Shown here piece after piece: positions 1,784 through 63,776 of a DNA stretch of 64,000 nucleotides; the stretch's first letter is position 1, and every line of letters begins with the position of its first letter. The notes beneath the pieces are model-generated. The model did not search any database and was not told where the DNA came from. It saw only the letters and a program-made list of their open reading frames with translations. Made by a program: the position numbers and the translations under genes. This DNA comes from Gammaproteobacteria bacterium (lineage in GTDB: Bacteria > Pseudomonadota > Gammaproteobacteria > SZUA-140). Location of the stretch: contig JADJWH010000007.1 in NCBI GenBank assembly GCA_016716465.1, positions 143,427 through 207,426 on the forward strand, written 5' to 3'.

Positions 1784-1878
1784 TGCCGAATCGTATCTCA
1801 TGCGCGGGGGCGGCCTTGGCCATCTGAGTGGGGCTTATTCACGTGCCATCGGGTAGAAGGTTGATGTTTGGGGAGCGC

Positions 1879-3105: not shown

Positions 3106-3189
3106 TGGAAATTAATGTTGTAGAATGGGCGGCACCTGGGCGGATTCTGGCTCGAGTATGCCCTAGTCCGTGTTTGGAGTAGTGTAATT

Positions 3190-4878: not shown

Positions 4879-4954
4879 TCGAGACCATCATGATGGGAAA
4901 TTATTCTGTAAAATCATATGATTGTCAGCCCGGCATCCTGGCTTGCGTGGGTGG

Positions 4955-5755: not shown

Positions 5756-5772
5756 ACTGCCCGGCCAATTTT

Positions 5773-6678: not shown

Positions 6679-6777
6679 CCGGTTCCGGCTAGGGATCTCC
6701 CTCGATATTGCGCTTGATCGATATATCCTCCGTACCATCCCGTTTCGCAGGACAACAGACTCATCAGGAGTGCATCA

Positions 6778-7545: not shown

Positions 7546-7549
7546 ATTT

Positions 7550-8749: not shown

Positions 8750-8765
8750 GCGGGTTGGAAATAAC

Positions 8766-9809: not shown

Positions 9810-9832
9810 CAACAAAGAGAGCAGGGTAACCT

Positions 9833-11616: not shown

Positions 11617-11639
11617 TACAAAGCGAGAGTTCTATCACG

Positions 11640-12479: not shown

Positions 12480-12509
12480 TGTATTCCGCTGCAGCAGAGT
12501 TGACACATC

Positions 12510-13871: not shown

Positions 13872-13928
13872 GTGTGCCGGCCGCGGGGCCGCGCTGCCGG
13901 CAGAATCGGCAATGCAGGATCGAATGAT

Positions 13929-15967: not shown

Positions 15968-16060
15968 ATGGCGCGATGGATGGAGTGGCCGCATCCTCTC
16001 TTGGCGCGTCCGGATCCGGCGCCGGTGTGACAGGGGGCCAGGTACCGGCGGAGGTGCGGC

Positions 16061-16870: not shown

Positions 16871-16893
16871 TGCTATAAATTTGCTCCGTATGG

Positions 16894-36016: not shown

Positions 36017-36096
36017 CCGGGCCCGTGTAAACACACAGCCGCCCTCCGCACGTGGTCTGGCATGCTATCAGTGAAATAGCGGATAATGATATCTCA

Positions 36097-43597: not shown

Positions 43598-46324
43598 TTA
43601 CTGCGTCACACTGATCCAGTTGATGTTGACGCTGCCGCTCTCGATCTGCAGGCGCAGCACCTGCTGGCCGGCGCTGAGATTCACGGCCTTGCTGATCGTC
43701 TGCCAGTTCGTCCAGCCGCCGGTATTCGGCACCGCGACCGCGCCGGAGACGTCGGCGCCGTTCATCAGGACGCGCAGGCGCTTGTTATTAGCCGCGGTGG
43801 CGACCCTGAAATTCAGGGTATAAGCGCCCGCTTGCGCCACGTTGACCGTGTACTCCAGCCATTCGCCCGAGGTCGTGGCGCCCACCATGTACGCGCCGTT
43901 CACATCCGACGCGCTCCAGATATCCACGTCATCATCGCGGTAGATATTGCCCGCGTTGCCGCTCGTGGCGTCCGCGTAGGCGATGCCGCCGCCGCCGGTG
44001 TCGTAATCCTCGGCCTGAATGACGCCGGGCAAGGCCCAGGCGCTGCCGCCGAACGGCGCCTGACCGCTTGGCGGCGGGGTCGAGGTTCCCTGCAGCTCCA
44101 GATAGTCGATATTGAAGCTGCCGCTATCGACCTGCAGGCGCAAGACCTGCTGGCCGGCGCTGAGATTCACGGCTTTGCTGATCGTCTGCCAGGTCGTCCA
44201 GCCGCCGGTGTTCGGCACCGCGACCGCGCCGGTAAGATCGACTCCGTTCGACAGTACGCGCAGCTGCTTGCCATTGGCCGCGGTGGCGACCCGGAGATTC
44301 AGGGTGTAAGCGCCCGCTTGCGCCACGTTGACCGTGTACTCCAGCCATTCGCCGTTGGACATGGCGCCGACCATGTAGTTGCTGTCGCCCGTGATGGACC
44401 ACATATCCACGTCGTCATTGCGGTAGATGTTGCCCGCATTGCCATTGGTGCTGTCGGAGTAGGCGACGTCGCTCCCGCCCGTGTCGTAATTTTCCGCCTG
44501 GATGATGCCGGGCACGGCCCACGGCGTACCGCCAAACGGCGCCTGTCCACCGCTGGGCGGCGGCGTGGAGCTGCTCTGGAATTGCATGTAGTCGATGTTG
44601 AAGCTGCCGTTGTCCACCTGCAGGCGCAGAACCTGCGGGCCGGCATTCAGGGTGACCGGCATGCTCACCGTCGTCCAGTTTTCCCAGTTGCCGGTATTGG
44701 GTACCGATATCGTGCCGGTGATGTCGGCGCCATTCATCAGAAGGCGGAACTGCTTGCCGTTGGCTGCCGTCACGACGGGCATGGTCAGGGTATACTGGCC
44801 CGACTGCGCGACATTGACGCTGTATTCCAGCCATTCCCCCGTCTTGGTCGTGCCGACGTAGAGGGCGCCGTCCGCGGCCCGGGTCCAGATATCCACGTTG
44901 TCGCTGCGATAGACGCCGCCGGCGTTGCCGTTGGTGGTGTCGTTGAACGCCACGCCGGATCCGCCCAGATCATAGTTCTCGGCCTCGATCTTGCCCGGGA
45001 TCTGCCACACCGAGCCACCGTACGGCGACTGCTGAGCCCCGCCACCGCCGGTATCGATCGTAAAGGTCCGGGAAACCACCGAGCTGTCGTTATATCCGTC
45101 CAGTTTGGCGATGGCCCTGACCGTGGTGGTCGAGGTCAAAGTGAACGGGCCGCCGTAGGGCGTGGAGCTTCCGGTCGGGGTACTGCCGTTGGTGGTGTAA
45201 TAGATCGTCGCGCCCGGTGTCGAGCTTGTGAGCTGCACGGTGACGGAATCCTGGTGCGTGCCGCCATTGGGGTTGAAGCTGGGGTCGCTGACCGTAGGGG
45301 TCTCGCCGCCGCCCGAACCGGCCCTGGAGTAGACATCGATCTTGTCGAACAGGGGGCCGGCTGTGTATTCCACCGCGCGCAGGCGCACGGTATTGTTGCC
45401 GGGGTTCAGGTTTACCAACCAGTCATGGCTGGCCCAGCTCGAAACGCGCCCGGTAGCGGCCGGCTTCACCAGGCCCTGGCTGACCCCGTTTACCAGAAGT
45501 TCGACGTTCTTAACGTTACCCTCGTGAGCGTAACGCATGGAGATAACGCGTTGGCCACCGGAAGTTCCGCCGCTGACATTGGTCCACTGGACATAGCCGT
45601 TGTTATTCGGCTTGAAGAACCCACTGCCGGTATAGTCGGGTTCATTGGTCTGGATGGCGCCATTTGAAATCGTGCCGTTTTCCGCCTGGTAGGAGGCGAG
45701 CAGACTGCCGCGATTGGGGAATTCGCGCAGCGTCAGGGAGGCGTCGTCCCAGTAGCTGACACCGCCTGTTACATCCCACCAGATTCTGAACCCGGCGTCG
45801 ACCTTCGAGGCCGTGGAGGGCGCCTGGAGGTGGATGGTCGAAGGGAACCAGTCATAGGTTCCATACGGCCCCCACATATACATCTCTTTTGCCAGCGCGG
45901 CATTGGAGGCATCCCTCCAGCGCACCACCGCGAGTGGTTTCCCACCCGCGCCATTGCCCGCGACGTTATCGCCTTTGACATATACGGTGTAGACATACTC
46001 GGCGCCGGGGGTGATCCCGGGAATGCGCGCCTGAGTGATGTTCGTCTGGGTCTGCGAGGGGTTGCTGTTACCATTGTGGGTCAGCTTTATCGAGCGGTTC
46101 CCGCTGTGCGCGACTCCGTTGACCACGGCCCCGTTGGCGGTATTGGAAACCCACGCTGTACCGGTTTCCATTGAAGCATCGGGGATGATGTTGGCCGGGG
46201 CCGCGCCATGGGCGGGAAGCGCGATCAGCCCTAGGAGAATAGCGGTGGTCCCCAACCCCATCAGAGGACGGGAGAGATCCTTCCGCAGGCTCCGGATATA
46301 TTTCAACATGATTGTTATCCTCAC
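43598..46324 (-). CDS. Secreted multi-CBM lectin-like protein: CBM4_9-like N-terminal module, divergent CBM6/35-like module, CHB_HEX_C-like Ig module, four tandem CBM6 modules; no catalytic domain recognised
   Basis: Signal peptide. Four repeats of the PFGG(T/S)(P/A)WA.PG.I.AE.YD.GG...NTGGWT.WQTIS..V.L.AGQQVLRLQ consensus. Confidence 0.8.
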   Translation of the reverse strand: MRITIMLKYIRSLRKDLSRPLMGLGTTAILLGLIALPAHGAAPANIIPDASMETGTAWVSNTANGAVVNGVAHSGNRSIKLTHNGNSNPSQTQTNITQARIPGITPGAEYVYTVYVKGDNVAGNGAGGKPLAVVRWRDASNAALAKEMYMWGPYGTYDWFPSTIHLQAPSTASKVDAGFRIWWDVTGGVSYWDDASLTLREFPNRGSLLASYQAENGTISNGAIQTNEPDYTGSGFFKPNNNGYVQWTNVSGGTSGGQRVISMRYAHEGNVKNVELLVNGVSQGLVKPAATGRVSSWASHDWLVNLNPGNNTVRLRAVEYTAGPLFDKIDVYSRAGSGGGETPTVSDPSFNPNGGTHQDSVTVQLTSSTPGATIYYTTNGSTPTGSSTPYGGPFTLTSTTTVRAIAKLDGYNDSSVVSRTFTIDTGGGGAQQSPYGGSVWQIPGKIEAENYDLGGSGVAFNDTTNGNAGGVYRSDNVDIWTRAADGALYVGTTKTGEWLEYSVNVAQSGQYTLTMPVVTAANGKQFRLLMNGADITGTISVPNTGNWENWTTVSMPVTLNAGPQVLRLQVDNGSFNIDYMQFQSSSTPPPSGGQAPFGGTPWAVPGIIQAENYDTGGSDVAYSDSTNGNAGNIYRNDDVDMWSITGDSNYMVGAMSNGEWLEYTVNVAQAGAYTLNLRVATAANGKQLRVLSNGVDLTGAVAVPNTGGWTTWQTISKAVNLSAGQQVLRLQVDSGSFNIDYLELQGTSTPPPSGQAPFGGSAWALPGVIQAEDYDTGGGGIAYADATSGNAGNIYRDDDVDIWSASDVNGAYMVGATTSGEWLEYTVNVAQAGAYTLNFRVATAANNKRLRVLMNGADVSGAVAVPNTGGWTNWQTISKAVNLSAGQQVLRLQIESGSVNINWISVTQ

Positions 46325-52023: not shown

Positions 52024-53139
52024 ATGAAAAAATATGCGTTCATCAAGATCAGGTCGAACCATGCCATTATTGACCAGATCATTAAAATCTTGGCGCATAC
52101 ATTTCCTGACTATCAATTGGATGTTATCGATATAAAAGACATTTTAAGGAATAAAATATTTTATGTATTTATTAATTTATTTCACGTTATAAAAATCTAT
52201 GGTTTCTCGACAATATTTGAAAGTAAGAGCGTTATTTATAACCGATTCTTTGGTACTCCCTATATGTATCATGTGATCAGTCGCCTGCTGGATTCTCATA
52301 TAGCGAAGGGTTATGCATTTACTATTCAAGATTGCTCGTTGTTCAACGGGAAGCAGCGTGATATCCCAAATTTCGTATATACAGATCATACGGTTCTAGC
52401 CAATAAAAACTACCCTTCCTATGATGAAAAAAGAGATTTGCTGGCGGAATCGTGGATAAACCTTGAGCGTAATATCTACAGCGAAGCAAGTATGGTGTTT
52501 ACGCGTTCTGAGGCGATCCGTAATTCGGTGATAAATGATTATTCTTGCGACCCTAGTAATGTTGAATGCGTTTATTTTGCGCCATTCATTACAACTAGGA
52601 GCGGGGTTGTAAATGCTGAAAAATACAAGAGAAAGAAGATATTATTTGTCGGCATTGAGTGGGAGAGGAAGGGTGGGCCTCAGTTGGTTGAGGCGTTCAA
52701 GCAGGTGCTGGAGGTCATTCCTGATGCCAGCCTAGTTGTCGTTGGTTGTGCTCCCACCATTTTGTTACCTAACGTGGAAGTGATTGGTCTTGTCGATAAA
52801 GAATACTTACCGCTCTATTATGAAAATGCCTCGGTATTTTGTTTGCCTACCCAACGCGAGCCATTCGGAATAGTCTTTATCGAAGCTATGAGCTACTCAT
52901 TGCCAGTTATAGGAACCAATATCGGTGCTCTTCCAGAGTTCATCCATGATGGCATCAATGGATATAAGGTCAATACTGGCGATGTAGACAGGTTGTCAGC
53001 TCTGCTCATAGAGCTGTTATCTGACCCGATCAAATGCGAACAATTAGGGAAAATGGGCTATGGTATCTACCATGAGAAATTTACGTTGGAAGGAGTTTCA
53101 TCTCTGCTCAACCACCATATAAGTCGGTTTATTGTATGA
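52024..53139 (+). CDS. Glycosyltransferase family 1 (GT4-type)
   Basis: FCLPTQREPFGIVFIEAMSYSLPVIGTNIGALPEFI motif. Confidence 0.8.
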   Translation: MKKYAFIKIRSNHAIIDQIIKILAHTFPDYQLDVIDIKDILRNKIFYVFINLFHVIKIYGFSTIFESKSVIYNRFFGTPYMYHVISRLLDSHIAKGYAFTIQDCSLFNGKQRDIPNFVYTDHTVLANKNYPSYDEKRDLLAESWINLERNIYSEASMVFTRSEAIRNSVINDYSCDPSNVECVYFAPFITTRSGVVNAEKYKRKKILFVGIEWERKGGPQLVEAFKQVLEVIPDASLVVVGCAPTILLPNVEVIGLVDKEYLPLYYENASVFCLPTQREPFGIVFIEAMSYSLPVIGTNIGALPEFIHDGINGYKVNTGDVDRLSALLIELLSDPIKCEQLGKMGYGIYHEKFTLEGVSSLLNHHISRFIV

Positions 53140-53218
53140 TTTCTAAGTGTTTAAATAAGTAAATGTGCGTGTCTCTATTATAATGGCTGAACTTTGAAAT
53201 AAGAATATTTCTAATCCA

Positions 53219-54442
53219 TTGTCGAATCTACTATCAATCAATAATTATTATTACTTCCGCGGCGGTGCGGAAGCGGTATTTCTGAGGCAAAATGCCTTGT
53301 TTGAAAGTATGGGTTGGCGCGTGGCGCCATTCTCTATGCGCCATTCGAATAATATTGATTCTCCTTGGTCGGACTACTTTGTCGAGGAAATTGAGTTCGG
53401 ATCAGAATATTCCCTATGGGGGAAAATTCGGCGTGTTCCGAAGGTGGTTTATTCTCTTGAGGCGCGGAGAAGGGTGCGCAGGCTGCTTGATGTATTTCCT
53501 GCTGATATATGCCATGCCCATAATATTTATCACCATATCTCTCCATCGATATTGCATCTGATCAAGCAGCGTGGCATTCCGATCGTCATGACACTTCATG
53601 ACCTGAAGCTCGCCTGCCCTGCATATAACATGCTTGCCAATGACGGTATTTGCGAGCGCTGTAAGGATGGCCGGATATATAACGTCCTACGTCACAGTTG
53701 CATAAAAGGTTCAGTGACTCTGAGCGCGGTAGTCATGGCCGAAACCCTACTCCACCGAGCATTGAAAACATTCGAGCGGCACATAGACAGGTTTATTGTT
53801 CCCAGTCATTTTTATATGGCTAAGCTGGCTGAATGGGGTTGGGATAAGTCACGGTTTTTGTACATTCCCAACGCACTCGATGTGGAGACATTCAGCGTTG
53901 ATTATGTTCCAGGAAAATCATTTGTATATTTTGGAAGGCTAAGTCGGGAAAAGGGTATTTCGACCTTAATCAAGGCCGCCTCTATTGCTGGCGTGTCTTT
54001 GACGATTGTAGGGACTGGCCCTGACGAACACCTACTACGGAAACTCTCTAAAGATGAAGGGGCAGATGTTACGTTTCTGGGCTACCTGAAGGGGCAGAAG
54101 TTGCATGATGTTGTCCGTTCTGCCCGTGCGGTTGTGCTACCCTCGGAGTGGTATGAGAATGCGCCATTGTCTGTTATGGAAGCCTATGCATTAGGCAAGC
54201 CAGTTATTGGTGCCACGATAGGTGGCATCCCAGAATTGATACAGAATGGGATAACAGGCGCCACGTTTGAATCGGGTTCTATCAGAGAACTAGCGGAAAT
54301 ATTGGCCCGATTTTCCTGTCTTCCGGACTCGGATATGTCCAACATGGGGCATGCTGGACGTTCTTGGATAGAAAGGGAATTCAACATGGACCAGTATGGA
54401 TCTAGGATGCTGAGTTTGTATCGGGAGCTTGGAGTTCAATGA
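53219..54442 (+). CDS. Glycosyltransferase family 1 (GT4-type)
   Basis: N-terminal INNYYYFRGGAE. C-terminal LPSEWYENAPLSVMEAYALGKPVIGATIGGIPE. TTG start as in the ORF track. Confidence 0.75.
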   Translation: MSNLLSINNYYYFRGGAEAVFLRQNALFESMGWRVAPFSMRHSNNIDSPWSDYFVEEIEFGSEYSLWGKIRRVPKVVYSLEARRRVRRLLDVFPADICHAHNIYHHISPSILHLIKQRGIPIVMTLHDLKLACPAYNMLANDGICERCKDGRIYNVLRHSCIKGSVTLSAVVMAETLLHRALKTFERHIDRFIVPSHFYMAKLAEWGWDKSRFLYIPNALDVETFSVDYVPGKSFVYFGRLSREKGISTLIKAASIAGVSLTIVGTGPDEHLLRKLSKDEGADVTFLGYLKGQKLHDVVRSARAVVLPSEWYENAPLSVMEAYALGKPVIGATIGGIPELIQNGITGATFESGSIRELAEILARFSCLPDSDMSNMGHAGRSWIEREFNMDQYGSRMLSLYRELGVQ

Positions 54443-54494
54443 ATATAGTTCTAATAGCAGAAGCTCGCAACGGTGAAAAGGGTTTCAGTAATTG

Positions 54495-55616
54495 ATGCGC
54501 ATAATGGTGCTAGGCCTTCGTGGGTTCCCTAATGTCCAGGGAGGCGTGGAGCAACATGCTGAGCAATTGTATCCTTTGCTAGCTAAGTTGGGTTGCCACA
54601 TCGATGTAATTGCACGTTCACCCTATGTGCCGCGCGAGCTTCGGATGTGGAATGGCATTACTTTTCACCGATTATGGGCGCCAAGGATCAGGGGGCTGGA
54701 AGCGCTGATACATTCCTTGATCGGGGTATTCTATGCCGGCATCAAGAGGCCTGATATCTTGCACATTCATGCTGTTGGCCCTGCGATCATTGCGCCACTC
54801 GGTAGAGCGCTAGGACTTAGGGTTGTGGTCACGCATCATGGTCCGGATTATGATCGCGAAAAATGGGGAAGGTCAGCGCGTTGGTTACTTCGGCTAGGTG
54901 AGAAGTGGGGTATGCTCTGTGCGAATCAGAGGATTGTCATCTCCAAAGTGATTAGAAAGCTGGTGTTCGATAAATATCGTCTCGATTCAGTTGTTATCCC
55001 AAATGGTGTCACTCTCCCAAAAATTCCTGAGACCAAGGAAACGCTGGGGCGATTTTCGCTGGTTGCTAAGAGATATATTTTGTTGGTTAGCCGCTTTGTG
55101 CCAGAAAAGAGGCATCTCGACTTAATTGAAGCCTTTGCCATGTCCAGACTTTTGGATTGGAAGCTGGTGTTGGTTGGAGAGGTGGATCGCCGCGACAGGT
55201 ATTGCATGAAGGTGCTATCTTCCGCCGAGCAGATCCCGGGTGTGGTAATCACAGACTTTCAATTTGGCCAAGCACTACAGGAGTTATATTCGTATGCTGG
55301 TCTCTTTGTATTGCCATCATCGCATGAAGGGCTTCCGATTGCTTTGCTTGAGGCATTAAGCTACGGATTACCCGTGCTGGCAAGTGATATACCCGCCAAT
55401 CTGGAAGTCGGCCTTCCGGAAACTAATTACTTTCCCCTTGGGAATGTCGCCATACTCGCCGGGGTATTGTGCGAGCGGGCTGTTGAGCAGTCAGATGGCG
55501 CACAGCGGGAGAGGTTACGTGCATGGGTTAGTGAGCGTTATTGCTGGACAGAGGTGGCGCAACGTACATTGGATACTTATAAAAAAGTATTAAGAAGGTC
55601 TAAGATATATTGGTAG
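54495..55616 (+). CDS. Glycosyltransferase family 1 with N-terminal DUF1972-type domain
   Basis: MRIMVLGLRGFPNVQGGVEQHAEQL N-terminal signature. PSSHEGLPIALLEALSYGLPVLASD C-terminal motif. Confidence 0.8.
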   Translation: MRIMVLGLRGFPNVQGGVEQHAEQLYPLLAKLGCHIDVIARSPYVPRELRMWNGITFHRLWAPRIRGLEALIHSLIGVFYAGIKRPDILHIHAVGPAIIAPLGRALGLRVVVTHHGPDYDREKWGRSARWLLRLGEKWGMLCANQRIVISKVIRKLVFDKYRLDSVVIPNGVTLPKIPETKETLGRFSLVAKRYILLVSRFVPEKRHLDLIEAFAMSRLLDWKLVLVGEVDRRDRYCMKVLSSAEQIPGVVITDFQFGQALQELYSYAGLFVLPSSHEGLPIALLEALSYGLPVLASDIPANLEVGLPETNYFPLGNVAILAGVLCERAVEQSDGAQRERLRAWVSERYCWTEVAQRTLDTYKKVLRRSKIYW

Positions 55617-55717
55617 TTGCCTAGATCCAAAGCTTAAGAATAAGCTCTGGTCTGCGCGGTTATTCTGATGTGGTCAATCTCTAAGAGGAGCTATGTGAGG
55701 AACACCAAGGGGGTGTT

Positions 55718-57232
55718 ATGGGCCTTGTTTATCGATTTCAGAATAATAAAAAATTTTTTATAGAAAAAGGGCAGTCAGAAAAAAACCATATAAAAGTATT
55801 TTTAGGAAATAAACTATCTTCTGAGCATGATCCAACCGCAGATGGAATATGGGCGGAATGGGAGTGGGATGGGATTGAATTTAGATTTTCCAATGATAGG
55901 CTTGGATTTTACCCGATCTATTATTACAGTTATGAAGGAAAGTTTGGTATCTCCACGTCTATAATTGATCTTGTTGAGAAAGGGGACGTCCCTCTGGATC
56001 TCGACGATCAAGCAGTGGCATTCTTTATAAGAATGGGATTTTTTCTCGCTGATGACACCCCATTTAAATACATTCATAGTGCGCCACCAGCCTGTAGTAT
56101 TAAATGGAAAGATGGGAGAGTGGAGGTATTTACAAAAGGGTGTATATCATCACAGATAGCAGTCGGGTTATCTAGAGGGGCGGCGATCAAAGAGTATGGA
56201 GAGAGATTTCAGAATGCTATTAATAATACAACTCCTGATAAGAACGAAAAGGTTGGTGTCCCGTTAAGTGGTGGAAGGGACTCGAGGCATATTGCCTTGG
56301 CATTATATGAGGGTGGGGTAAATATACATTCGTTTTTGACTGTTAATAAGGGCCAGGATTTGACAGTCTCTCGCCAAGTAGCGCGTGAGTTGGGAATAGC
56401 TCAGTCAGTTATATATCAAAAGGGGTCTAGATTCGGGCAAGAAATTCGTAAGAATTATCTTACCAGTTTTTGTGCTGATGAGCATGCATGGGCTTTAGGC
56501 TTGGCCAATTCTATTGAAGAAAATCGATACACGGTTATTTATGATGGGATTGGTGGTGATGTTTTATCTGCGAGCGCGTTCCTCAATGAAAGGAGATTAG
56601 ATTTATATAGAAAGGAAAAGTTAGAGCAACTGGCAGAGCATCTAATGATAGACGAAGGTTATATACGATATTCTCTGCCAGAGGATTTTTATCAACGATT
56701 TAGCCGTGAACGAGCGGTCAATAAATTAACGGAGGAGTTAAGGAAGCATGTAAACACGCCAAATCCTGTTTCGCAATTCTTTTTTTGGAATAGAACGAGG
56801 AGAGAAATAGCATTATTGCCATGGGGTCTCTATAGGCGGGATATCAAAATTATGGCTCCTTATTTAATGAAAGGTATCTATGACTTTCTAACAGGATTGC
56901 CTGCCGAGTATATGCTCAACCGTCAATTCCATGAGCAAGCTATAAATAATCAATATGCTAAACACAGTCATATCCCTTATGAGGATAAGTCGGTATCTAC
57001 ACAAAGATTGTGTAAGCAATTTATTAAGACATTCAGAGAGGCGAGATTAATTAAAAACTATATTAATTATATTTCTATCTCTGGCGTCAAGAAATTTGAT
57101 ATCGGACTCGGGGCGCATTTCATAAAGCTGATTGGCATGTACTCAATGGCCCGCTCAAATGATCAATTCTTAAATTCCTTGAGAAGGATCATTTGGTTGG
57201 TACAGCTGTTGAGCCTACAGAAAATAAAGTAG
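55718..57232 (+). CDS. Asparagine-synthase-related amidotransferase (AsnB C-terminal synthetase domain; N-terminal domain lacks the Cys2 nucleophile)
   Basis: PP-loop VGVPLSGGRDSRHIA. N-terminus MGLVYRF... instead of MCGI. Similar to WbpS-like O-antigen sugar amidotransferases. Confidence 0.65.
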   Translation: MGLVYRFQNNKKFFIEKGQSEKNHIKVFLGNKLSSEHDPTADGIWAEWEWDGIEFRFSNDRLGFYPIYYYSYEGKFGISTSIIDLVEKGDVPLDLDDQAVAFFIRMGFFLADDTPFKYIHSAPPACSIKWKDGRVEVFTKGCISSQIAVGLSRGAAIKEYGERFQNAINNTTPDKNEKVGVPLSGGRDSRHIALALYEGGVNIHSFLTVNKGQDLTVSRQVARELGIAQSVIYQKGSRFGQEIRKNYLTSFCADEHAWALGLANSIEENRYTVIYDGIGGDVLSASAFLNERRLDLYRKEKLEQLAEHLMIDEGYIRYSLPEDFYQRFSRERAVNKLTEELRKHVNTPNPVSQFFFWNRTRREIALLPWGLYRRDIKIMAPYLMKGIYDFLTGLPAEYMLNRQFHEQAINNQYAKHSHIPYEDKSVSTQRLCKQFIKTFREARLIKNYINYISISGVKKFDIGLGAHFIKLIGMYSMARSNDQFLNSLRRIIWLVQLLSLQKIK

Positions 57233-57243
57233 CTTGACGATTT

Positions 57244-58215
57244 CTATTTGTGAGGCGGCTGGATTTGGCTGCTGCGAGCATAACGCAAATAGCCGAGGCT
57301 TCGCGCGAAAGAATTCTTCAGCCAGCGCGCCTGAACCTCGGGTGCCCGCATTTTTATATTTGGCCCTTCATCAGAGATGAGGTCGTTTCGCACATCGTGG
57401 AGTGTGAGCATTTTCATGATGCCCTGCAAATAGCCTGACTTTTTAATACGAAGAGCTACCAGTTCCTCCAATTGCGGATCATTGATCTGCTTATAGTAAA
57501 TAGTACGTAATTCTTGTGTGACAGCAGTCCGGTTGTTATTGGTTCTTTCTTCAAAATTGGCAGCAGAACTCTGATCTTGAAGGTGTACTCGCGCCGACTC
57601 GTTTCCAAACAGAAGATGGTGTTTCTTGTGCCAGAACTTCTCTTTTCCCTCGAAATAAGGTATGCCTAAGTAGCAACAAATATTCTCAAGCACTGCTGGG
57701 TCTCGTGTATAGTCGGAGTAGGGTACGGAGCGCCAGTCAGCTATCTTGGTTGTATATAGACGAAAATAGTTTATCCACGAACTCTCCCATTTGTCGTAAC
57801 CTTTGCCCCGCTTTTTTAATGAATGCGCGTATTCTAGAGGGGTTTTCCATATAACAATATGCTTGGTTTCAATGCCGGACTTTCTAAGAAGCTTCGACTG
57901 ATAGTTAATCCAAAAGGGATCCTTGCTGGAATCAATGATAAACCTTACCTCAGGTTTAAGTTCGAAGATCTTGTTATAGAGATTCTGCTTCCCCGCGGCG
58001 CGCACTTGTGACCAGAAGTTACAATTTATTTCTCCGCATCCACATATTGGATCTATATGGTGTGCGCGATAGGGGTGAATCAGTGCATTGACTTCCCCGG
58101 TTGAGAACCCAGCAGGATCATTTCCCAGCGTCATGTCAAAAAAGGTAGAACCACTAAATGCGGTTCCCCCAACAAAGATCAGTTTTCTTTCTGTCATTTG
58201 AGTTATTACCATCAA
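57244..58215 (-). CDS. P-loop sulfotransferase-like protein
   Basis: N-terminal LIFVGGTAFSGSTFF loop and overall size resemble Stf0/Sulfotransfer_3 proteins. Weaker motif match than the other five. Confidence 0.5.
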   Translation of the reverse strand: MMVITQMTERKLIFVGGTAFSGSTFFDMTLGNDPAGFSTGEVNALIHPYRAHHIDPICGCGEINCNFWSQVRAAGKQNLYNKIFELKPEVRFIIDSSKDPFWINYQSKLLRKSGIETKHIVIWKTPLEYAHSLKKRGKGYDKWESSWINYFRLYTTKIADWRSVPYSDYTRDPAVLENICCYLGIPYFEGKEKFWHKKHHLLFGNESARVHLQDQSSAANFEERTNNNRTAVTQELRTIYYKQINDPQLEELVALRIKKSGYLQGIMKMLTLHDVRNDLISDEGPNIKMRAPEVQARWLKNSFARSLGYLRYARSSQIQPPHK

Positions 58216-58872
58216 TGGGGATGTTCTTTGGAGGGATATTTTTTAGATAAATCAGCCAGATTTTCCGGAGGCGCTGCCATGGTTGTACTTTTCTGGTTTA
58301 AAGTATTTTTCTATTAGTTTCGGCTGATTTATATGCACTGCATTTATGAGTTGGCGGAAATTGGTTATATAGATTTTTATGCATTTGTGAGGCATATGAT
58401 TATGTTACAGTTTGCTCGATTGGGTTCTATATTTTCTGTGTGGCATATGCGAGTGACTTGTGGTGCTCGATGAAACACAGCTTTGCTCTTGAAAAATTTT
58501 CCGCGATGTTCCTGTAGAGAAATTCGTTATAGATGGGTGGCAAATAATCTCGATAAGGCAGAGCATTGGCGATAACGATCAGAATATCTGTTATTTGAAT
58601 CGGAAGGAAACTTCATCTGGCCAATATAGCGTACAGGAAGGATAAACGCCCCTTTTCGTATCCGTCAACCAGTTATTCACGGGGGGAGTGTTTAGATAGT
58701 TCATTGTTGTTACATCCAAGAAACGGCAACGGGAGCCGAATGTGAGGTGATGACGTACTTGCTTCAATGATGAGTCTGGGGCAGGGTCGGATAGTATTCG
58801 TATGCAGCCCGAGCCAGTTCAAGGAGCTAGTTGTGCTTGTATTATGAAATACCCTTTGAAGCTCCAACAGAC

Positions 58873-60342
58873 TCAGGGTTCATATCCTGGGGGCAGATAT
58901 GGGAAAGCAAATGTTCCTGGTGGCCCGAATGTATCAAGTGCCTGGTGAACCTCTTCAAGAGTCGGCGGGTTATTGTGCCAAGGGGTGTCCCATGATACAG
59001 CAAGATTATGGACGGGCATTATGCCGGGTGGGTCTTCGCCGGCCCGGCCTAGCCCAGAATTCCTCTTTGCCGGATCTGTCGCTTTTGGCGAGCCCGAGAG
59101 CGCCCATACAATATGGGAAAATGTCTGTGGCACAGTTACATTGCTGTAATTCCATGGATTGGGAATGCCAGCTGCAAAGAAAGTGGTTTCTCTCTGTCCG
59201 TTACTTTCAGTCGCCTGCGACAGAAATCTAATATCCTTCTGATAAACGCCATTCAGGTCATTAAACCTGGTCGCGCTAGTGAAATTATCTGTTCCCACCA
59301 TTTTCATGTCAGGGAAGTTCGCACCCATGTGTGGGTTGTTCATATATTGCCAGCGTATATCAAGCCCCCCCCCTACCAGGGTCGACTGTGTTACATAGAT
59401 GCCAGATGCCGCATAAATCTCTGCAATCTTTCTGTTAAGCAGGCTCATGCCATGATAATAGTCTGTTGAGTTGTAATCGCTGGGGAGATTACCTGACGGC
59501 TCCGCTTCTGGACAGCGTATAAACATGACCTTGTTTATATTGCCAGTTGCAACTAAATGGTCATACATTGCTTTGACAAAGATTAAAATCTCATCGATTA
59601 CATATGGCGCAGTGCCTCTGTTTCTTAGTCCTCTAGCATCAGGCCCAGAATATCGATAGAACTTGGGAACCCAATGTGACGTTCCATCAGTGCTCCAAAC
59701 GGCATCATACGGAGCTGCATTTAACCACGCCGGAGTGCTGGGACTGTTTCCCCACGAAACTACTCCTAGATTAAGTACCAGGAGCGCCCCTTCGTTTTGT
59801 ACTGCATTGATTTTAAATGCTGCATCAAGAAGGCTCCAATCATATCCCGGGTCAGTGTGATTTGCCGGATTAGAGGGTCTGATATTCTGGTTGGTGTAAT
59901 ATCTCCACATGCGTAAGGGAAATACTATCCCACCATATACCCCGGGTGGCCGATATGAGGCTTTGCGATTCGGGCTGGTGGTAAATAAGGCCTGCCACTT
60001 AGATTCCATGAGGGAAGGGGAAGGATTTTCTTCCGATGTATCCACCACGATGCCGGGGCGGAATTTCAAATTTGTTCCGGGGAATACTCCGGATTGGCTA
60101 CTTGATACATTTGCAGCAGAGGAATTGCTGGAAGCGGCACATTGAATCCCCTCCGAGTGTTCGATGCATATGTCCGTCGGCGTCGTCGGAGGAGCTGCTG
60201 GGGCCGCTCCAATCGAGCTTGCCAGTAGGAAGATCAGAAGATAGAGGGATTGTTTCAACATGATAGGTTTTGTGCTCGTATCTGGATAAACGAAGGGGTG
60301 TGCGTCGCGGCGCATGGATATGCTCATGTTCTTGTCATGCAT
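58873..60342 (-). CDS. Secreted hypothetical protein (low-GC), possibly a glycan hydrolase; co-transcribed downstream of the CBM6 lipoprotein
   Basis: Signal peptide MLKQSLYLLIFLLASSIGAA (an alternative start is at 60261). No motif recognised by eye. 20-bp gap to the upstream gene. Confidence 0.45.
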   Translation of the reverse strand: MHDKNMSISMRRDAHPFVYPDTSTKPIMLKQSLYLLIFLLASSIGAAPAAPPTTPTDICIEHSEGIQCAASSNSSAANVSSSQSGVFPGTNLKFRPGIVVDTSEENPSPSLMESKWQALFTTSPNRKASYRPPGVYGGIVFPLRMWRYYTNQNIRPSNPANHTDPGYDWSLLDAAFKINAVQNEGALLVLNLGVVSWGNSPSTPAWLNAAPYDAVWSTDGTSHWVPKFYRYSGPDARGLRNRGTAPYVIDEILIFVKAMYDHLVATGNINKVMFIRCPEAEPSGNLPSDYNSTDYYHGMSLLNRKIAEIYAASGIYVTQSTLVGGGLDIRWQYMNNPHMGANFPDMKMVGTDNFTSATRFNDLNGVYQKDIRFLSQATESNGQRETTFFAAGIPNPWNYSNVTVPQTFSHIVWALSGSPKATDPAKRNSGLGRAGEDPPGIMPVHNLAVSWDTPWHNNPPTLEEVHQALDTFGPPGTFAFPYLPPGYEP

Positions 60343-60361
60343 TGGCAGGTTGTTCTCAGTC

Positions 60362-62890
60362 TCAGATGGTCAGGGGGACCATGGTGCATGCGGGCATAGA
60401 CCAGTCTGAGATACCATCGGCATTATAAGCGCGAAGCTTAAAGCAGATATTATCCCCGGGTTTCATGCCTAAATCATACCAGGAGTCATACTGTATAGCC
60501 GGATTCACGGGGTCAAAGCTCCCGGCGAATGCCTGAATATTCGTGGTTTCGGTGGTGACCGCATTTTCGCTGGGGCCGAAATAGACGATATAGCCCTGTA
60601 TGGAATCAGAATTGGGTGACCAGGTGAGCGTTAATGTGGTGTTTGTAACATCAGCCTGATCATCTATGTTGCCAGACAGGATCTCGATCGAGTTGAGATT
60701 GAAGCTACCATTGTCCACCTGCATGCGCAGCACGTGCAGGCCGGCGCTGAGATTGACGGATTTCCTGACGGTCTGCCAGGTTTGCCAGCCGCCGGTGTTG
60801 GGGATGGCAATCGCGCCGGTAAGATCGCTGCCATCCACCAGGATGCGAGCCAGTTTTCCACTGTCGGCGGTGGCCACACGCAGGTTTATGGTATAGGTTC
60901 CGGTAGTGGTCACGTTGACGGTATATTCCAGCCACTCCCCGGCCTGGGTAGTGCCCACCATGTAGCCTCCGCCAATGTCGGTGGAGACCCAGATGTCCAC
61001 ATTGTCGCTGCGCAGATAACCGCCAGAGTTGCCGTTGGTAGTGTCGGAGTAGGCAACCCCGTCACCGCCTTCGTCGTAATACTCGGCCTCGATCAGGCCC
61101 GGAACCGTCCAGGGCGTCCCGCCATGAGGTTTTTGTAGGGGGTCAATGACTACCACCGGCGTCGTTTGCGTCCCATTGGTCTGTCCGCTGGAGCTGTCAG
61201 CCGTGATCTTGATCGAATTGAGGTTGAAGCTGCCGTTGTCGACCTGCACACGCAGGACATGCAGGCCGGATCCAAGATTGACGGATTTTCCTACGGTCTG
61301 CCAGGTTTGCCAGCCGCCAGTGTTGGGGACCGCAATCGACCCGGTAAGGTCGCTGCCGTCCAGCAGGACGCGGGCCAGTTTACCGTCTTCGGCGGAGGCC
61401 ACACGCAGGTTGATGACGTAGGCACCGGTGTTGACCACGTTGACGGTATATTCCAGCCATTCCCCGGTCTTTGTCGTACCCACCATGTAGCCACCGCCTG
61501 TATCGGTGGAGACCCAGATGTCCACATTGTCGCTGCGCAGATAGCCGCCGGCATTGCCGAGGGTGGTGTCGGAGTAGGCGACCCCGTCACCGCCTTCGTC
61601 GTAAAACTCGGCCTCGATCAGGCCCGGAACCGTCCAGGGTGTCCCGCCATAGGCTCGTTGCGCGGAGTCGGTGGCGGGTCCCACGGGGATACTGCTTATT
61701 ACCTGTTCCACAACCGCGGTTTCCTCGGTATTGGCCGGATTGAGGATTTCCGACATGGCATCGTCGAGCAAGCTGGTGTTGTTTGCCGCGGCCAGATTGA
61801 TGGCGATTTCCTGCGCTGTGCTGCCGACTTCAATAGTGGTGATGCTGGTCTGAATATCTGCGAGCCCCGCACTGGGGGCAATGACAGCAGCTACAGCGAG
61901 AGCGGTCTGTACGTTCTGCAAAATTTCCATGTTAACTGGAAGTTCCCCCGTTGTCTCGGTCGCGGTGGGCATAATCGCCTTGATCGAGTCATCCAGTTGA
62001 CTGGTGGCCGGAGCATTATTCACTTGCAGGTTATTGCTAAGGGCTTCAATTAGTACTTGCCCGGAAGCAACTGTTGCAGTTGCAGAAACTGTGGTGTCAG
62101 CCCCTGAGGCTCCCTTGCCATCGAGCACGCCATCCGTCATATCGGCGGCGAGGCTCTCAATCAAGGTGTTTTGAGTAACCTCACTATTGACGCTGGAAAG
62201 GGCGGAATAGTTCCTTCGAATTATCTCCGCGAGCACCTCGCTCGATTTGACGACGGTCGCGACATTCTGCTCGGTTACGGGTGTCGTGATTGGATTCGGC
62301 ATCTTCTTGGTATCCAGGCCGGCATTGAAGCCCGCAAGGATGTTCCGATTGGCCGTGACCAGATTCGCGGGGGTCAGGCCCGAGGGCATTTTCTGCGCCG
62401 TCTTCACGATCAGTGTGGAGAATGGGTTGATGTTCGCCGTGGTCTCCTGCGTGCTCATCACGGTGCTGACCATATTGAAGGTCGGCTCGGCATTGGTGAC
62501 CAGGTCGGTGCCGCCGCTGGAAGAGATCGTCACCGGGAATGCCGTGCCGGCGGGAATGTTGGCGGAGTAGCGGGCCTGGTAGTCGCTGTAGACCTTCGCC
62601 AGTTCCTGCCCTCCGGCGTCCCTGATGGTGATGGCGGCCCCGATCACGGGGCCATCGACGATGCTCCCGCTGATGGTGATCTGGGAATCGCTGCGCGATA
62701 CTCCCTGGATCGTGGCGGTTCCGGTTTGTCCGTTGCTGTCGTTTTCACCATTGGTGGAACCCAGGATGACACCGGTCTCATGGTTTTCGCCCGATGCTGA
62801 ATCATCCCCGCCTCCGCAGGCCGTCAGTGTGCCGACTAGAAATAATATGGAGGAGAGCGAGATCAGCCTGATCTTTGCGGGACGAAACAT
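60362..62890 (-). CDS. Lipoprotein with a roughly 450-aa low-complexity Thr/Ser/Ala/Asn-rich region, two CBM6 modules and a C-terminal FN3-like module
   Basis: Lipobox LVGTLTAC. CBM6 consensus twice (GGTPWTVPGLIEAE.YDEGGDGVAYSDTT.GN.GGYLRSDNVDIWVSTD). C-terminal WSPNSDSIQGYIVYFGP...CFKLRAYNADGISDWS. Confidence 0.75.
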   Translation of the reverse strand: MFRPAKIRLISLSSILFLVGTLTACGGGDDSASGENHETGVILGSTNGENDSNGQTGTATIQGVSRSDSQITISGSIVDGPVIGAAITIRDAGGQELAKVYSDYQARYSANIPAGTAFPVTISSSGGTDLVTNAEPTFNMVSTVMSTQETTANINPFSTLIVKTAQKMPSGLTPANLVTANRNILAGFNAGLDTKKMPNPITTPVTEQNVATVVKSSEVLAEIIRRNYSALSSVNSEVTQNTLIESLAADMTDGVLDGKGASGADTTVSATATVASGQVLIEALSNNLQVNNAPATSQLDDSIKAIMPTATETTGELPVNMEILQNVQTALAVAAVIAPSAGLADIQTSITTIEVGSTAQEIAINLAAANNTSLLDDAMSEILNPANTEETAVVEQVISSIPVGPATDSAQRAYGGTPWTVPGLIEAEFYDEGGDGVAYSDTTLGNAGGYLRSDNVDIWVSTDTGGGYMVGTTKTGEWLEYTVNVVNTGAYVINLRVASAEDGKLARVLLDGSDLTGSIAVPNTGGWQTWQTVGKSVNLGSGLHVLRVQVDNGSFNLNSIKITADSSSGQTNGTQTTPVVVIDPLQKPHGGTPWTVPGLIEAEYYDEGGDGVAYSDTTNGNSGGYLRSDNVDIWVSTDIGGGYMVGTTQAGEWLEYTVNVTTTGTYTINLRVATADSGKLARILVDGSDLTGAIAIPNTGGWQTWQTVRKSVNLSAGLHVLRMQVDNGSFNLNSIEILSGNIDDQADVTNTTLTLTWSPNSDSIQGYIVYFGPSENAVTTETTNIQAFAGSFDPVNPAIQYDSWYDLGMKPGDNICFKLRAYNADGISDWSMPACTMVPLTI

Positions 62891-63272
62891 TCAGTCTTAC
62901 CTTTGGGTTCGCGGCCATGTTCAGGACCTGTTACCTAGCAGCCGTATGTTGCCCGGGTTCGTCGCAGGCTTCCGTGAGGGGGTTCATCGGGGAGCTGTGA
63001 GATCAGTCACAGATCGGGAATCCCATGTGGAAAAGGCCGGGTTTCCAGGGGTGGAACTGCTTGTTCGCACGATGATATGACCGCAAACCCTCCCGTCACG
63101 GGAAGGCGGGGTCATGCTGTGTTAGCGTGTTGAGACCGGAACTGGCGCACACTTTCGCATGGTGTGCGGGAAACCCGGATCGCGTTCAGAGCTGTTTCAG
63201 CCGGCGGGTGTGGAAATGCTGAACTGGCGCGATCGAACGGTATGGCGCCGTTCGTGGAGGAATATCAGGGAA

Positions 63273-63776
63273 TCAGGTGTAGGTGAAGCACACGGCGTCG
63301 GAGAAATCGGAAGTGCCTTCGGCGTTGTAGGCCTTGATCCGGAAGCAGGAGGCGTCGCCGGTATTCAATCCGAGATCCAGCGTGGGGTCGTAATGAACCG
63401 TGGTCTCCAGCGTGATGGCCAGCAAGGCCGTGGCACTCTCCGGCGTGGGTCCGTGAAAGATCATGTAGCCGTCGATGAAGCCGGTGCTCGGGCGCCAGGA
63501 TAGAGTGAGGGTGTACGGTGATTCCTGTTGCTCGGCATCCGAATCCAGATCGGAGTAGTCGTCCAGATCGTAGTCCGAAGAATCGTTCTGGGCCACGTCG
63601 TCCGGATCCTCACGGGTATCCTGGCCGCCGGGCAGCATGACGACACCTGTGCTTCTTGTGCCGGATGTGTTCGGGCTGTTATTGTCGTAGCAACCGGTAA
63701 GCAGTGCGAAAGCGACGAGGATCAGAAGGCCCTGAACGTATGTGGTGAGAGGGTGGTGTGATGACATGCTCAACAA
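63273..63776 (-). CDS. Small lipoprotein with an acidic linker and an FN3-like module paralogous to the C-terminus of the upstream lipoprotein
   Basis: Lipobox ALLTGC. DYDLDDYSDLDSD acidic stretch. FIDGYMIFHGP...CFRIKAYNAEGTSDFS matches the FN3 end of the gene at 60362. Confidence 0.6.
   Translation of the reverse strand: MLSMSSHHPLTTYVQGLLILVAFALLTGCYDNNSPNTSGTRSTGVVMLPGGQDTREDPDDVAQNDSSDYDLDDYSDLDSDAEQQESPYTLTLSWRPSTGFIDGYMIFHGPTPESATALLAITLETTVHYDPTLDLGLNTGDASCFRIKAYNAEGTSDFSDAVCFTYT

Follow-up and report, generated by a model that had tools for sequence, protein, structure and literature searches.

In Bacteroidota, the surface proteins SusE and SusF consist of a lipid anchor, an N-terminal Ig-like domain and tandem carbohydrate-binding beta-sandwich modules, and they are encoded beside glycosidases. 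The RbmC and Bap1 proteins of Vibrio cholerae are secreted lectin-bearing matrix proteins which bind the cell's own exopolysaccharide (EPS) and retain it at the surface; they are not lipoproteins, their lectins have a beta-prism fold and they are devoid of a glycosidase module. Finally, hydrolases are found in EPS operons, for example Pseudomonas PslG (GH39, clan GH-A), BcsZ and PelA.

The three-gene locus analyzed here compares with all of these. Its 842-aa lipoprotein is like SusE/SusF in having a lipid anchor, an Ig-like domain, tandem carbohydrate-binding modules and an adjoining putative glycosidase gene, whereas the host is a gammaproteobacterium, the ORFs scanned contain no SusC/D transporter, the context is biosynthetic and the protein possesses an additional helical lobe and a terminal FN3 module. 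It resembles RbmC/Bap1 as a lectin-bearing protein that may bind the cell's own EPS, and FG-GAP propeller proteins with lectin modules are encoded in the island as well, but the 842-aa protein is a lipoprotein, its lectin modules are of the CBM6 type and a glycosidase-like partner is encoded next to it. In contrast to PslG, BcsZ and PelA, this partner of 489 aa matches neither a Pfam GH family nor a PDB chain in sequence. It bears a Cys-hairpin tag at its N-terminus and is paired with FN3-ended lectins.

All positions given below refer to the window, i.e. the whole stretch of 64,000 nucleotides that was analyzed. The three ORFs lie on the minus strand, as the first-pass annotation had described. 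In detail, the gene of a 167-aa small FN3 lipoprotein (63273..63776; TTG start with an ATG three codons in) is followed by an intergenic spacer of 382 nt (62891..63272), the gene of the 842-aa lectin lipoprotein (60362..62890) and, 19 nt downstream, the gene of the secreted 489-aa glycosidase-like protein (58873..60342), the likely true start of which is Met28 at 60261. No Rfam match was found in the spacer, and its single promoter-like site (63099-63072) does not exceed the number of sites in shuffled sequence. Over 57637-61007 the sequence agrees to 100% with an independent Logan contig, and the orthologue P0146 (830 aa) is 60% identical to the 842-aa protein over the full length and shares its architecture, so that misassembly is unlikely. 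The DNA of the supposed low-complexity region contains no tandem repeat. All known relatives come from uncultured MAGs or metagenomes.

Lipoproteins were recognized by a positively charged n-region, a hydrophobic h-region and a lipobox [LVI][ASTVI][GAS]C within about 35 residues. The 842-aa protein shows all three, namely the n-region MFRPAKIR with three Lys/Arg, the stretch LISLSSILFLVGT and the lipobox LTAC with Cys25 (62816..62890, minus strand), and of 34 homologues in the alignment at least 90% keep this cysteine. The 167-aa protein, a putative lipoprotein, has an h-region and the lipobox LTGC with Cys29 (63690..63776, minus), with an atypical n-region without Lys or Arg; an in-frame stop lies 8 codons upstream of its start, and its orthologues do carry Lys/Arg in the n-region. 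Both lipoboxes were located by regular expression and translation. The +2 residue is Gly in the 842-aa and Tyr in the 167-aa protein and in neither case Asp, which is only suggestive of Lol export of both lipoproteins.

The anchor of the 842-aa protein is followed by a flexible Gly/Ser/Thr/Asn/Asp-rich tether (residues 26-68; 62687..62815, minus), delimited by composition, alignment and model. Only 16% of its residues are hydrophobic, homologues have anything from 0 to about 45 residues in its place, and the first 10 modelled residues reach a pLDDT of 62. This segment is the only stalk candidate in the protein; two shorter linkers are found at residues 401-413 and 566-588.

The region behind the tether had been taken for about 450 residues of low-complexity sequence, forming an extended and possibly glycosylated stalk. 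Neither description is supported. The region does have a bias towards Ala, Thr, Ser and Asn (13, 12, 9 and 7%), but its complexity is like that of the CBM6 region, with a Shannon entropy of 3.85 versus 3.88 bits and a SEG-like mask covering 6.8% of residues 71-450 versus 8.6%, and 42% of it is hydrophobic. The region is common to 85 homologues with 33-80% identity and with invariant residues, whose motifs are seen across 34-71 homologues. The AlphaFold model (pLDDT 87.4, pTM 0.86) shows defined strands and helices; most of residues 70-350 have pLDDT values of 93-98, and from there to about residue 400 the values are 84-90. Conservation and model together show that residues ~70-400 constitute a folded domain, hereafter the N-domain, predicted to comprise a transthyretin/CnaB-like beta-sandwich lobe (residues 70-144; 62459..62683, minus) and a lobe of eleven helices (residues 156-400; 61691..62425, minus). 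The invariant residues of the helical lobe include E222, R225, R226 and the loop D250-x2-D253-G-x2-D257-G-x-G260, and with these charged residues the lobe could have a binding or catalytic function of its own.

There is no Pfam family for the N-domain, which is matched at E<=1e-3 by 570 representatives of clusters at 50% identity. In every case it forms the N-terminal part of a lipoprotein, and the cargo that follows it at the C-terminal side can be CBM6, discoidin, malectin, CBM4_9, Calx-beta plus pectate lyase, or an array of Ig domains. Among 66 species-representative genomes with an N-domain, the 489-aa family was found within 8 kb in none and a sister family of it in three, and therefore the N-domain is not generally tied to this type of enzyme. 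Distant members sit in unrelated contexts (L004). We also compared it with the N-terminal non-heme domain of PgcA from Geobacter sulfurreducens (PDB 9i0e), and neither similarity at the sequence level nor a significant Foldseek hit was obtained. The PgcA domain has about 190 residues as opposed to about 330, and its cargo consists of heme domains instead of lectins.

The presence of two CBM6 modules was borne out by Pfam CBM_6 (PF03422; E 6.9e-41), which scores 139.9 bits against a gathering threshold of 28.9 bits in two stretches. Module 1 (residues 414-565; 61196..61651, minus) matches the PDB sequences 8zvk (1.4e-35) and 2y8k (6e-30). Module 2 (residues 589-742; 60665..61126, minus), with its best Pfam stretch at 628-737, matches 2y8k with an E-value of 7e-31 over 139 residues. 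Between the two copies, identity amounts to 83.8% at the protein level and to 82% over 300 nt, at a spacing of 525 nt. The closest solved CBM6 that aligns in one stretch over the whole module is that of CtXyl5A from Clostridium thermocellum (PDB 2y8k/5g56), a cellulosomal arabinoxylanase of a Gram-positive bacterium, where it accompanies a GH5 catalytic domain. In the motifs IEAE, AYxD, GEWLEY and FNLNxI, the positions E, Y, W and N are shared with the CtXyl5A module and may belong to ligand cleft A of CBM6. The window contains 10 related CBM6 copies in 4 proteins, with 51-64% identity to the copies of the 842-aa protein.

The 842-aa protein ends in a two-cysteine FN3 module (residues 746-842; 60365..60655, minus), and another one makes up the C-terminal part of the 167-aa protein (63276..63521, minus). 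As single sequences they reach 24.6 and 18.8 bits, respectively, with Pfam fn3 (PF00041), both below the cut-off of 25 bits. We assign them to FN3 by the similarity of the family profile to canonical FN3, since the profile of the 842-aa module matches fibronectin (E 2.6e-11) and titin (E 6.5e-34). The two modules are indeed paralogous, as had been proposed, with 37.8% identity over 90 aa (E 2.5e-16), and the module of the 842-aa protein is 64-72% identical to those ending four other protein types (L001, L002, L075, L077). The acidic linker reported for the 167-aa protein (63522..63689, minus), which contains DYDLDDYSDLDSD, has 16 Asp/Glu and 2 Lys/Arg in 56 residues, and residues 64-81 form a SEG-like low-complexity segment. 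Orthologues of the 167-aa protein with 38-42% identity occupy the same gene position in L001 (146 aa), L002 (151 aa) and L077 (179 aa).

The 489-aa protein begins with the Sec-type signal peptide MLKQSLYLLIFLLASSIGAA without a lipobox (60202..60261, minus), from which point its homologues align. The family comprises 60 homologues, one of them (P0086) 100% identical. Searches of Pfam, NCBIfam and PHROG gave no match, nor did PDB sequences, whether searched with the protein itself or, at E<=10, with a profile built from 51 sequences; no established GH sequence family was thus recovered in these databases, and the suggested assignment to DUF4832 is left without a match. The first-pass annotation had also proposed looking for a GH-like fold, and here the model (pLDDT 91.2) shows a (beta/alpha)8 barrel of the clan GH-A type (58876..60087, minus). 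Candidate catalytic residues are E279 (59506-59508), which is invariant and follows the model strand 245-249, taken as beta4, and E379 (59206-59208), 94% conserved behind strand 347-350, taken as beta7; the strand numbering is inferred. The ends of beta4 and beta7 are where clan GH-A enzymes have their acid/base and nucleophile, respectively. E279, the putative acid/base, sits in 'PEAE', the usual GH-A motif 'NE' being absent, and falls into the same hhalign block as the Glu of the 'GET' motif in the sister enzyme family, which takes the same place in the gene order and is distantly homologous (hhalign probability 98.2%, E 6e-14). Mu-like prophages have the catalytic domain as part of tail proteins (L003, L074), an arrangement typical of enzymes directed at cell-surface polysaccharide.

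Between signal peptide and barrel lies the Pro-rich Cys-hairpin tag PAAPPTTPTDICIEHSEGIQCAA (60133..60201, minus). In at least 28 of the 60 homologues the signal peptide is succeeded by the motif P-x-G/D-[LIV]-C-x(4-11)-C, which recurs in the sister family and occurs once in the window. The tag is modelled as a beta-hairpin with a pLDDT of 50-67, and the stretch between it and the barrel has values below 50.

The EPS setting noted earlier was recovered. The window contains at least 6 sulfotransferase-like and at least 9 GT4 genes, a GT2, a Wzz/GNVR and a BBP2 porin gene. We suggest, at about even confidence, that the sulfated exopolysaccharide of the island itself is what an outer-membrane lectin lipoprotein and a glycosidase encoded here would bind and process. 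The 842-aa protein would be a lectin with a lipid anchor, most probably in the outer membrane, in which the lipobox Cys is followed by the tether of about 43 residues, the folded base domain, the two CBM6 modules and the two-cysteine FN3. The ligand would be the island's own sulfated heteropolysaccharide, because the same type of CBM6 is found in three other large secreted proteins of the island. By analogy with the hydrolases of other EPS operons, the 489-aa enzyme may trim, release or remodel this polymer. The 167-aa lipoprotein would add a second membrane-tethered FN3 module, and the FN3 modules might serve in assembly, holding lectin, small lipoprotein and tagged enzyme together at the cell surface.

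A different function, unlikely in our opinion but deserving serious attention, would be foraging: the lectin lipoprotein would capture exogenous sulfated polysaccharide, e.g. from algae or neighbouring cells, and the tagged glycosidase would degrade it for uptake, in analogy to the surface glycan-binding lipoproteins of polysaccharide-utilization loci. The succession of lipid anchor, Ig-like domain and CBM modules does resemble SusE/F-type proteins, the window encodes a giant sulfatase-CBM6x3-GDSL esterase, an N-domain protein (P0159: N-domain, Calx-beta and pectate lyase) carries a pectate lyase, and in L079, which looks more catabolic than biosynthetic, one lectin is followed by 12 tandem paralogous tagged enzymes. 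However, the scan of six large window ORFs (694-2376 aa) yielded CBM6, FG-GAP and sulfatase proteins but no TonB-dependent transporter domain or SusC/D-like pair, so that among these ORFs there is no sign of the adjacent TonB-dependent transporter and SusD-like gene by which a polysaccharide-utilization locus is defined. No sugar catabolic or import genes adjoin the module. Its surroundings are GT4 and/or sulfotransferase genes, as in biosynthetic clusters, both here and in L001, L002, L006, L075, L077 and L080. At least five of the loci compared have GT4 genes close by, three of these five also sulfotransferase genes.

Alternatively, and rather improbably, the lipoprotein might be a mere matrix cross-linker or adhesin with which cells stick to other surfaces or to their own EPS, the enzyme being independent and the FN3 modules spacers. 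Indeed, many members with an N-domain are long, adhesin-like Ig-repeat arrays (up to 15 He_PIG domains in a protein of 2426 aa), FG-GAP and lectin proteins are present in the island, and FN3 often serves as a spacer. In agreement with the three-gene module first proposed, L001, L002 and L077 likewise have the genes of a small FN3 lipoprotein, an N-domain lipoprotein and a secreted enzyme with the tag in this order, and six further loci have reduced forms (L006, L075, L080, L082, L083, L087). The adjacency of FN3 and tag argues against a mere cross-linker: in all 11 non-phage loci the enzyme has the N-terminal tag and directly follows a gene ending in a two-cysteine FN3, whereas tag and FN3 neighbour are both absent from all four phage forms. 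Moreover, the N-domain is fused to enzyme domains in P0159 and in L056, where a single lipoprotein unites it with an Ig domain and a domain related to the enzyme (E 1.9e-40), and a lipoprotein of linker and FN3 alone is hard to explain as a spacer. Of the former suggestion that the module tethers the EPS or anchors a hydrolase, it is the anchoring half that these Rosetta-stone fusions support. The disordered, possibly O-glycosylated stalk holding the CBM6 pair off the membrane could point to the Ala/Thr/Ser/Asn bias and to the real tether at residues 26-68, but faced with the ordinary complexity, the invariant motifs and the confidently modelled fold it is hardly credible.

Within the reading of a lectin and glycosidase acting on the island's own polymer, the FN3 modules might bind the N-terminal Cys-hairpin tag of the enzyme. 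As a tentative and on balance doubtful extension, FN3 and tag could represent an undescribed docking pair with which sulfur-oxidizer-type Gammaproteobacteria mount interchangeable glycosidases of two unclassified GH-A-like families on lipid-anchored lectin scaffolds. The cohesin-dockerin pair of the cellulosome is an analogue in concept only, as regards a tagged enzyme docking on a CBM-bearing, cell-anchored scaffold; there is no relation in sequence or fold, and the tag described here is N-terminal, about 20 residues long and has one Cys pair.

What had been annotated as a disordered stalk is thus a defined domain without a Pfam family, widespread with about 570 clusters at 50% identity, and it appears to be a general base for the display of glycan-binding or glycan-cleaving cargo. 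The two related unclassified glycosidase-like families are candidates for new CAZy families, the substrate of both being probably sulfated bacterial exopolysaccharide. Such exopolysaccharides have been described mainly from cyanobacteria (PMC8205485). The use of the enzyme domain by Mu-like prophage tails points to cell-surface glycans as receptors. The strict adjacency of FN3-ended proteins and tagged enzymes makes the docking hypothesis directly testable and, if it proved true, the module would represent a Gram-negative cellulosome-like surface machine for sulfated polysaccharide.

The first-pass annotation had described three open reading frames as a surface module, and ORF calls place them on the minus strand exactly where it had put them, encoding a 167-aa protein (63273–63776), an 842-aa protein (60362–62890) and a 489-aa protein (58873–60342). 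The gap between the last two genes is 19 nt, or 100 nt if Met28 is the true start of the 489-aa protein. Translation gives the 842-aa protein the N-terminus MFRPAKIR-LISLSSILFLVGT-LTAC, a textbook lipoprotein signal, and at least 90% of 34 homologues in the alignment keep the lipobox cysteine. The 167-aa protein, a putative lipoprotein, has an h-region and the lipobox LTGC, but its n-region contains no Lys or Arg; its orthologues have the usual positive n-region. An in-frame stop 8 codons upstream of the start rules out a longer form of the 167-aa protein, whose signal peptide (63690–63776, minus) begins at a TTG, or at an ATG three codons in. An exact-sequence look-up of the 842-aa protein returned no record, Rfam gave no match over 57–64 kb of the window, and a promoter and terminator scan yielded the same site counts as shuffled sequence.

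Behind its lipid anchor the 842-aa protein had been thought to carry a low-complexity stalk of about 450 residues. This proved untenable, as sequence comparison and modelling identify the region as a predicted folded, conserved domain (the N-domain, about residues 70–400). Residues 71–450 have a Shannon entropy of 3.85 bits, compared with 3.88 for the CBM6 part, are 42% hydrophobic and are covered to 6.8% by a SEG-like mask, compared with 8.6% of the CBM6 region. With residues 63–416 as query, 85 homologous proteins were retrieved (best E 2e-84, identity 33–80%), none of which has a Pfam domain over this part, and in the alignment P81, G127, N153, P156, E222, R225, R226 and the loop D250-x2-D253-G254-x2-D257-G258-x-G260 are invariant. 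The AlphaFold model, built from 71 sequences, is confident (pLDDT 87.4, pTM 0.86) and shows a beta-sandwich at residues 70–144 and eleven helices at residues 156–400. Foldseek found no match to it in the PDB at E<=1e-3, and searches of PDB sequences with the single sequence and with a profile gave FN3 matches or noise only. By its appearance, the only flexible tether would be residues 26–68, which are rich in Gly, Ser, Thr, Asn and Asp and vary in length among homologues; further flexible parts are the short linkers 401–413 and 566–588.

That the supposed stalk might be the translation of a misassembled repeat, a possibility raised with it, is rejected because a tandem-repeat search of the DNA found none over the N-domain and only two trivial 9-nt repeats, both within the CBM6 copies. 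An independent short-read contig (L078, Logan SRR11674018) is 100% identical to window 57637–61007 and ends inside the second CBM6 copy, at the start of a 525-nt-spaced repeat. Assemblies commonly break at repeats in this way, and the contig supports the window sequence against misassembly.

The two CBM6 modules claimed for the 842-aa protein are recovered by Pfam (E 6.9e-41). The copies span residues 414–565 and 589–742, are 83.8% identical in protein and form a direct repeat in DNA with 525-nt spacing and 82% identity over 300 nt. With tblastn, ten CBM6 copies, 51–64% identical to the CBM6 of the 842-aa protein, were found in four window proteins, namely those encoded at 16894–20694 (plus), 22243–29373 (minus) and 43598–46324 (minus) and the 842-aa protein itself, suggesting that one lectin module specific to this island, the polysaccharide gene cluster of the window, was shuffled between its proteins. 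Since one CBM6 type recurs across the island, a common ligand is suggested, presumably the sulfated polymer of the island itself. At the C-terminus, Pfam fn3 is borderline (24.6 bits against 25), and because a profile including the C-terminal module of the family matches canonical FN3 of fibronectin (2.6e-11) and titin (6.5e-34), the module can be classified by its sequence as a genuine FN3. Its proposed paralogy with the FN3 of the 167-aa protein is confirmed by 37.8% identity over 90 aa (E 2.5e-16), and each of the two modules has two conserved cysteines. As a homologue query, the 97-aa FN3 alone gave at least two matches, a number held down by the word-index limit.

A scan of 1.84 billion cluster representatives with the N-domain gave 570 matches at E<=1e-3, of which 314 reached E<=1e-30, in proteins of 281–2426 aa in which the domain is always N-terminal. 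Most aligned members end in FN3, and the C-terminal cargo is highly variable, including two CBM6, discoidin, malectin and Ig, CBM4_9 and discoidin, Calx-beta and pectate lyase, cadherin-like/TSP3 and up to 15 He_PIG Ig domains. The CBM6 cargo is found in P0146, an 830-aa orthologue 60% identical to the 842-aa protein over its full length, so the view that the window alone has this architecture was rejected. Because the domain next to the lipid is constant while the glycan-directed cargo swaps, analogy argues for the N-domain as a base, anchoring or export module. Read in this way, the constant lipid-proximal domain is reminiscent of PgcA, a lipid-anchored protein that is transferred to the cell surface and whose first domain is free of cofactor (PMC11520253, PMC10570954).

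Among 66 N-domain loci of species-representative genomes, 65 belong to uncultured Gammaproteobacteria or unclassified Proteobacteria/Pseudomonadota and one to a Bdellovibrionales MAG; the hosts classified more finely are Chromatiales, Chromatiaceae, Ectothiorhodospiraceae, Thiohalobacter, Thioalkalivibrio, Thiotrichaceae and Wenzhouxiangella. The closest N-domain in this set is 52% identical. The 489-aa family was found within 8 kb of the N-domain at none of the 66 loci and distant members lie in unrelated neighbourhoods, so the link between N-domain and enzyme is not a general one.

The 489-aa protein, a putative glycosidase, has 60 clear homologues and no match in Pfam, NCBIfam, PHROG or PDB sequences, even with a 51-sequence profile. 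In this family E279, following the strand assigned to beta4, is invariant, E379, following the strand assigned to beta7, is 94% conserved, and nine conserved Arg/Lys would be compatible with an anionic substrate. At the homologous loci L002, L006 and L077 the same gene position is taken by a second unannotated family, which hhalign identifies as distantly homologous (probability 98.2%, E 6e-14) and which is referred to here as the sister family; one of its members has a sub-threshold GH42 match. The N-domain and both enzyme families are without match in Pfam, NCBIfam or PDB, among those of these libraries that were run on each.

In the non-phage enzymes of both families at the loci examined, the signal peptide is directly followed by the motif P-x-G/D-[LIV]-C-x(4-11)-C, with a shorter-loop variant in two enzymes of L079. 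In the 489-aa protein this tag (60133–60201, minus) reads PTDICIEHSEGIQC and is modelled as a hairpin, with a low-confidence Ser/Ala/Asn linker between hairpin and barrel. The same-strand ORF just upstream of the tagged enzyme ends in a two-cysteine FN3 at all 11 non-phage loci whose upstream sequence is available; the phage-type forms have neither tag (0/4) nor FN3 neighbour (0/4). The tag was found at the window, L001, L002, L006, L075, L077, L079, L080, L082, L083 and L087. By analogy with cohesin and dockerin, FN3 and tag might form a docking system, which we regard as rather doubtful.

The grouping into a three-gene module is borne out by its recurrence. L001 contains a 146-aa FN3 lipoprotein, an N-domain-FN3 lipoprotein, a discoidin-FN3 protein, a 489-aa orthologue (53% identity) and GT4 genes in this order, and L002 has the same order with a sister enzyme. 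In L077 a 179-aa lipoprotein that shares 42% identity with the 167-aa protein is followed by P0146 and then by a sister enzyme, which over its first 110 residues matches the 489-aa protein at 44% identity. Related forms are seen in L075 (small FN3 lipoprotein, discoidin x2-FN3 protein, enzyme) and L080 (N-domain-discoidin-FN3 lipoprotein, enzyme, GT4 and sulfotransferase genes). L079 (ENA ERZ27264496 k141_991232, 2398–20358) encodes one 928-aa discoidin/CBM4_9 protein with a two-cysteine FN3 end and then 12 tagged enzymes in tandem, seven of the 489-aa type and five of the sister type. Finally, in L056 (MAG CBDUNQ010000054.1, 4002–6692) a single 896-aa lipoprotein combines N-domain, He_PIG and a sister-enzyme domain (E 1.9e-40), and a 428-aa ORF follows downstream; judged from its sequence, this fusion links the enzyme to the putative anchoring domain in Rosetta-stone fashion.

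Among the homologues of the 489-aa protein, those of 820–850 aa lack a signal peptide and lie in Mu-like prophage tail modules. Their interpretation as N-domain fusions was rejected, as they proved to be phage tail proteins whose N-terminal part is unrelated. In L003 and L074 the catalytic domain of the family is the C-terminal half of 828–851-aa tail-module proteins; the L003 form (10001–12556) follows a probable tape-measure gene (1031-aa ORF) in a module with Mu-like Pfam matches, and the L074 form (680–3166) adjoins the same 683–693-aa tail gene as in L003. Such placement in tail modules is typical of enzymes acting on cell-surface polysaccharide, and both proteins look like candidate phage depolymerases. 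Use by phages was seen only in these two contigs, which resemble prophages, and in two further long forms without the tag, and the family had no match in IMG/VR, PHROGs or, by tblastn, cultured phages.

A large polysaccharide island makes up the window and has genes for Wzz/GNVR, a BBP2 porin, an ABC ATPase, an epimerase, a C-methyltransferase, at least nine GT4 and one GT2 glycosyltransferases, at least six sulfotransferase-like proteins, a 1266-aa FG-GAP-CBM6x2 protein and a 908-aa CHB_HEX_C-CBM6 protein. A 2376-aa ORF (22243–29373, minus) combines a sulfatase (E 1.3e-59), three CBM6, He_PIG/Big_9 Ig, CHB_HEX_C and a GDSL esterase, and looks like a multi-activity enzyme that would desulfate and deacylate polysaccharide, encoded here within a biosynthetic island. 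Three FG-GAP/UnbV_ASPIC paralogues of about 700 aa with C-terminal ASPIC (29567–31651, minus; 31648–33801, minus; 36052–38154, plus) are interleaved with sulfotransferase and GT2 genes. The module is flanked by an Asn-synthase-like gene (55718–57232, plus) with weak NCBIfam similarity to lasso-peptide cyclase and PEP-CTERM amidotransferase; three such genes stand in tandem in L001 and L002 (1–5350). In L001, L002, L075 and L077 a divergent DnaJ-domain gene is a flanking gene, and L075 (1–3140) also holds PqqD, ScmC and NTP_transf_5 genes.

The window (56% GC overall) is a mosaic in composition, 53000–60650 differing from 60650–63776. GC3 is 0.70–0.75 in the two lipoprotein genes, falls to about 0.58 at the FN3-coding end of the 842-aa gene and is 0.48 in the 489-aa gene, 0.48 in a sulfotransferase-like gene, 0.37 in the Asn-synthase-like gene and 0.48–0.51 in two GT4 genes. 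The drop is compatible with cassette exchange of the module's enzyme end. As evidence that FN3 and enzyme travel together the profile was rejected, being suggestive only, since the N-domain dips too. In the orthologous locus L077 the enzyme position holds the other enzyme family.

We give roughly even chances to a mechanism in which the 842-aa protein would be a lectin with a lipid anchor, probably in the outer membrane, with a folded base domain near the membrane and a CBM6 pair binding the island's presumed sulfated exopolysaccharide (EPS), which the putative glycosidase encoded downstream would trim or release; the FN3 modules of both lipoproteins would be assembly modules, possibly docking the Cys-hairpin tag of the enzyme. 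Architecture, fold, conservation, synteny, fusions and capture by phages are results of the analysis, and the ligand, the activity, exposure at the surface and docking are proposals built on them. A foraging system, for which the sulfatase and esterase in the window and the enzyme battery of L079 would speak, is improbable, as no transporter was found among the large window ORFs scanned (694–2376 aa) and the gene context is biosynthetic. It is likewise unlikely that the protein is a pure adhesin or matrix cross-linker and its neighbouring enzyme unrelated in function, and a disordered, glycosylated stalk is hardly credible in view of the invariant residues and the confident model. A lipid-anchored lectin paired with a glycosidase would work like SusE/F-type surface glycan-binding lipoproteins, PslG-type EPS-operon hydrolases and RbmC/Bap1-type matrix lectins; however, the module belongs to none of these types, differing from the first by having no SusC/D pair, from the second by having no sequence-level GH family and from the third in its lectin fold.

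A paper on synechan describes sulfated EPS as a cyanobacterial speciality among bacteria (PMC8205485). In the present, apparently gammaproteobacterial genome at least six sulfotransferase-like genes occur among about ten glycosyltransferases, and for this reason the island may be of interest in itself.
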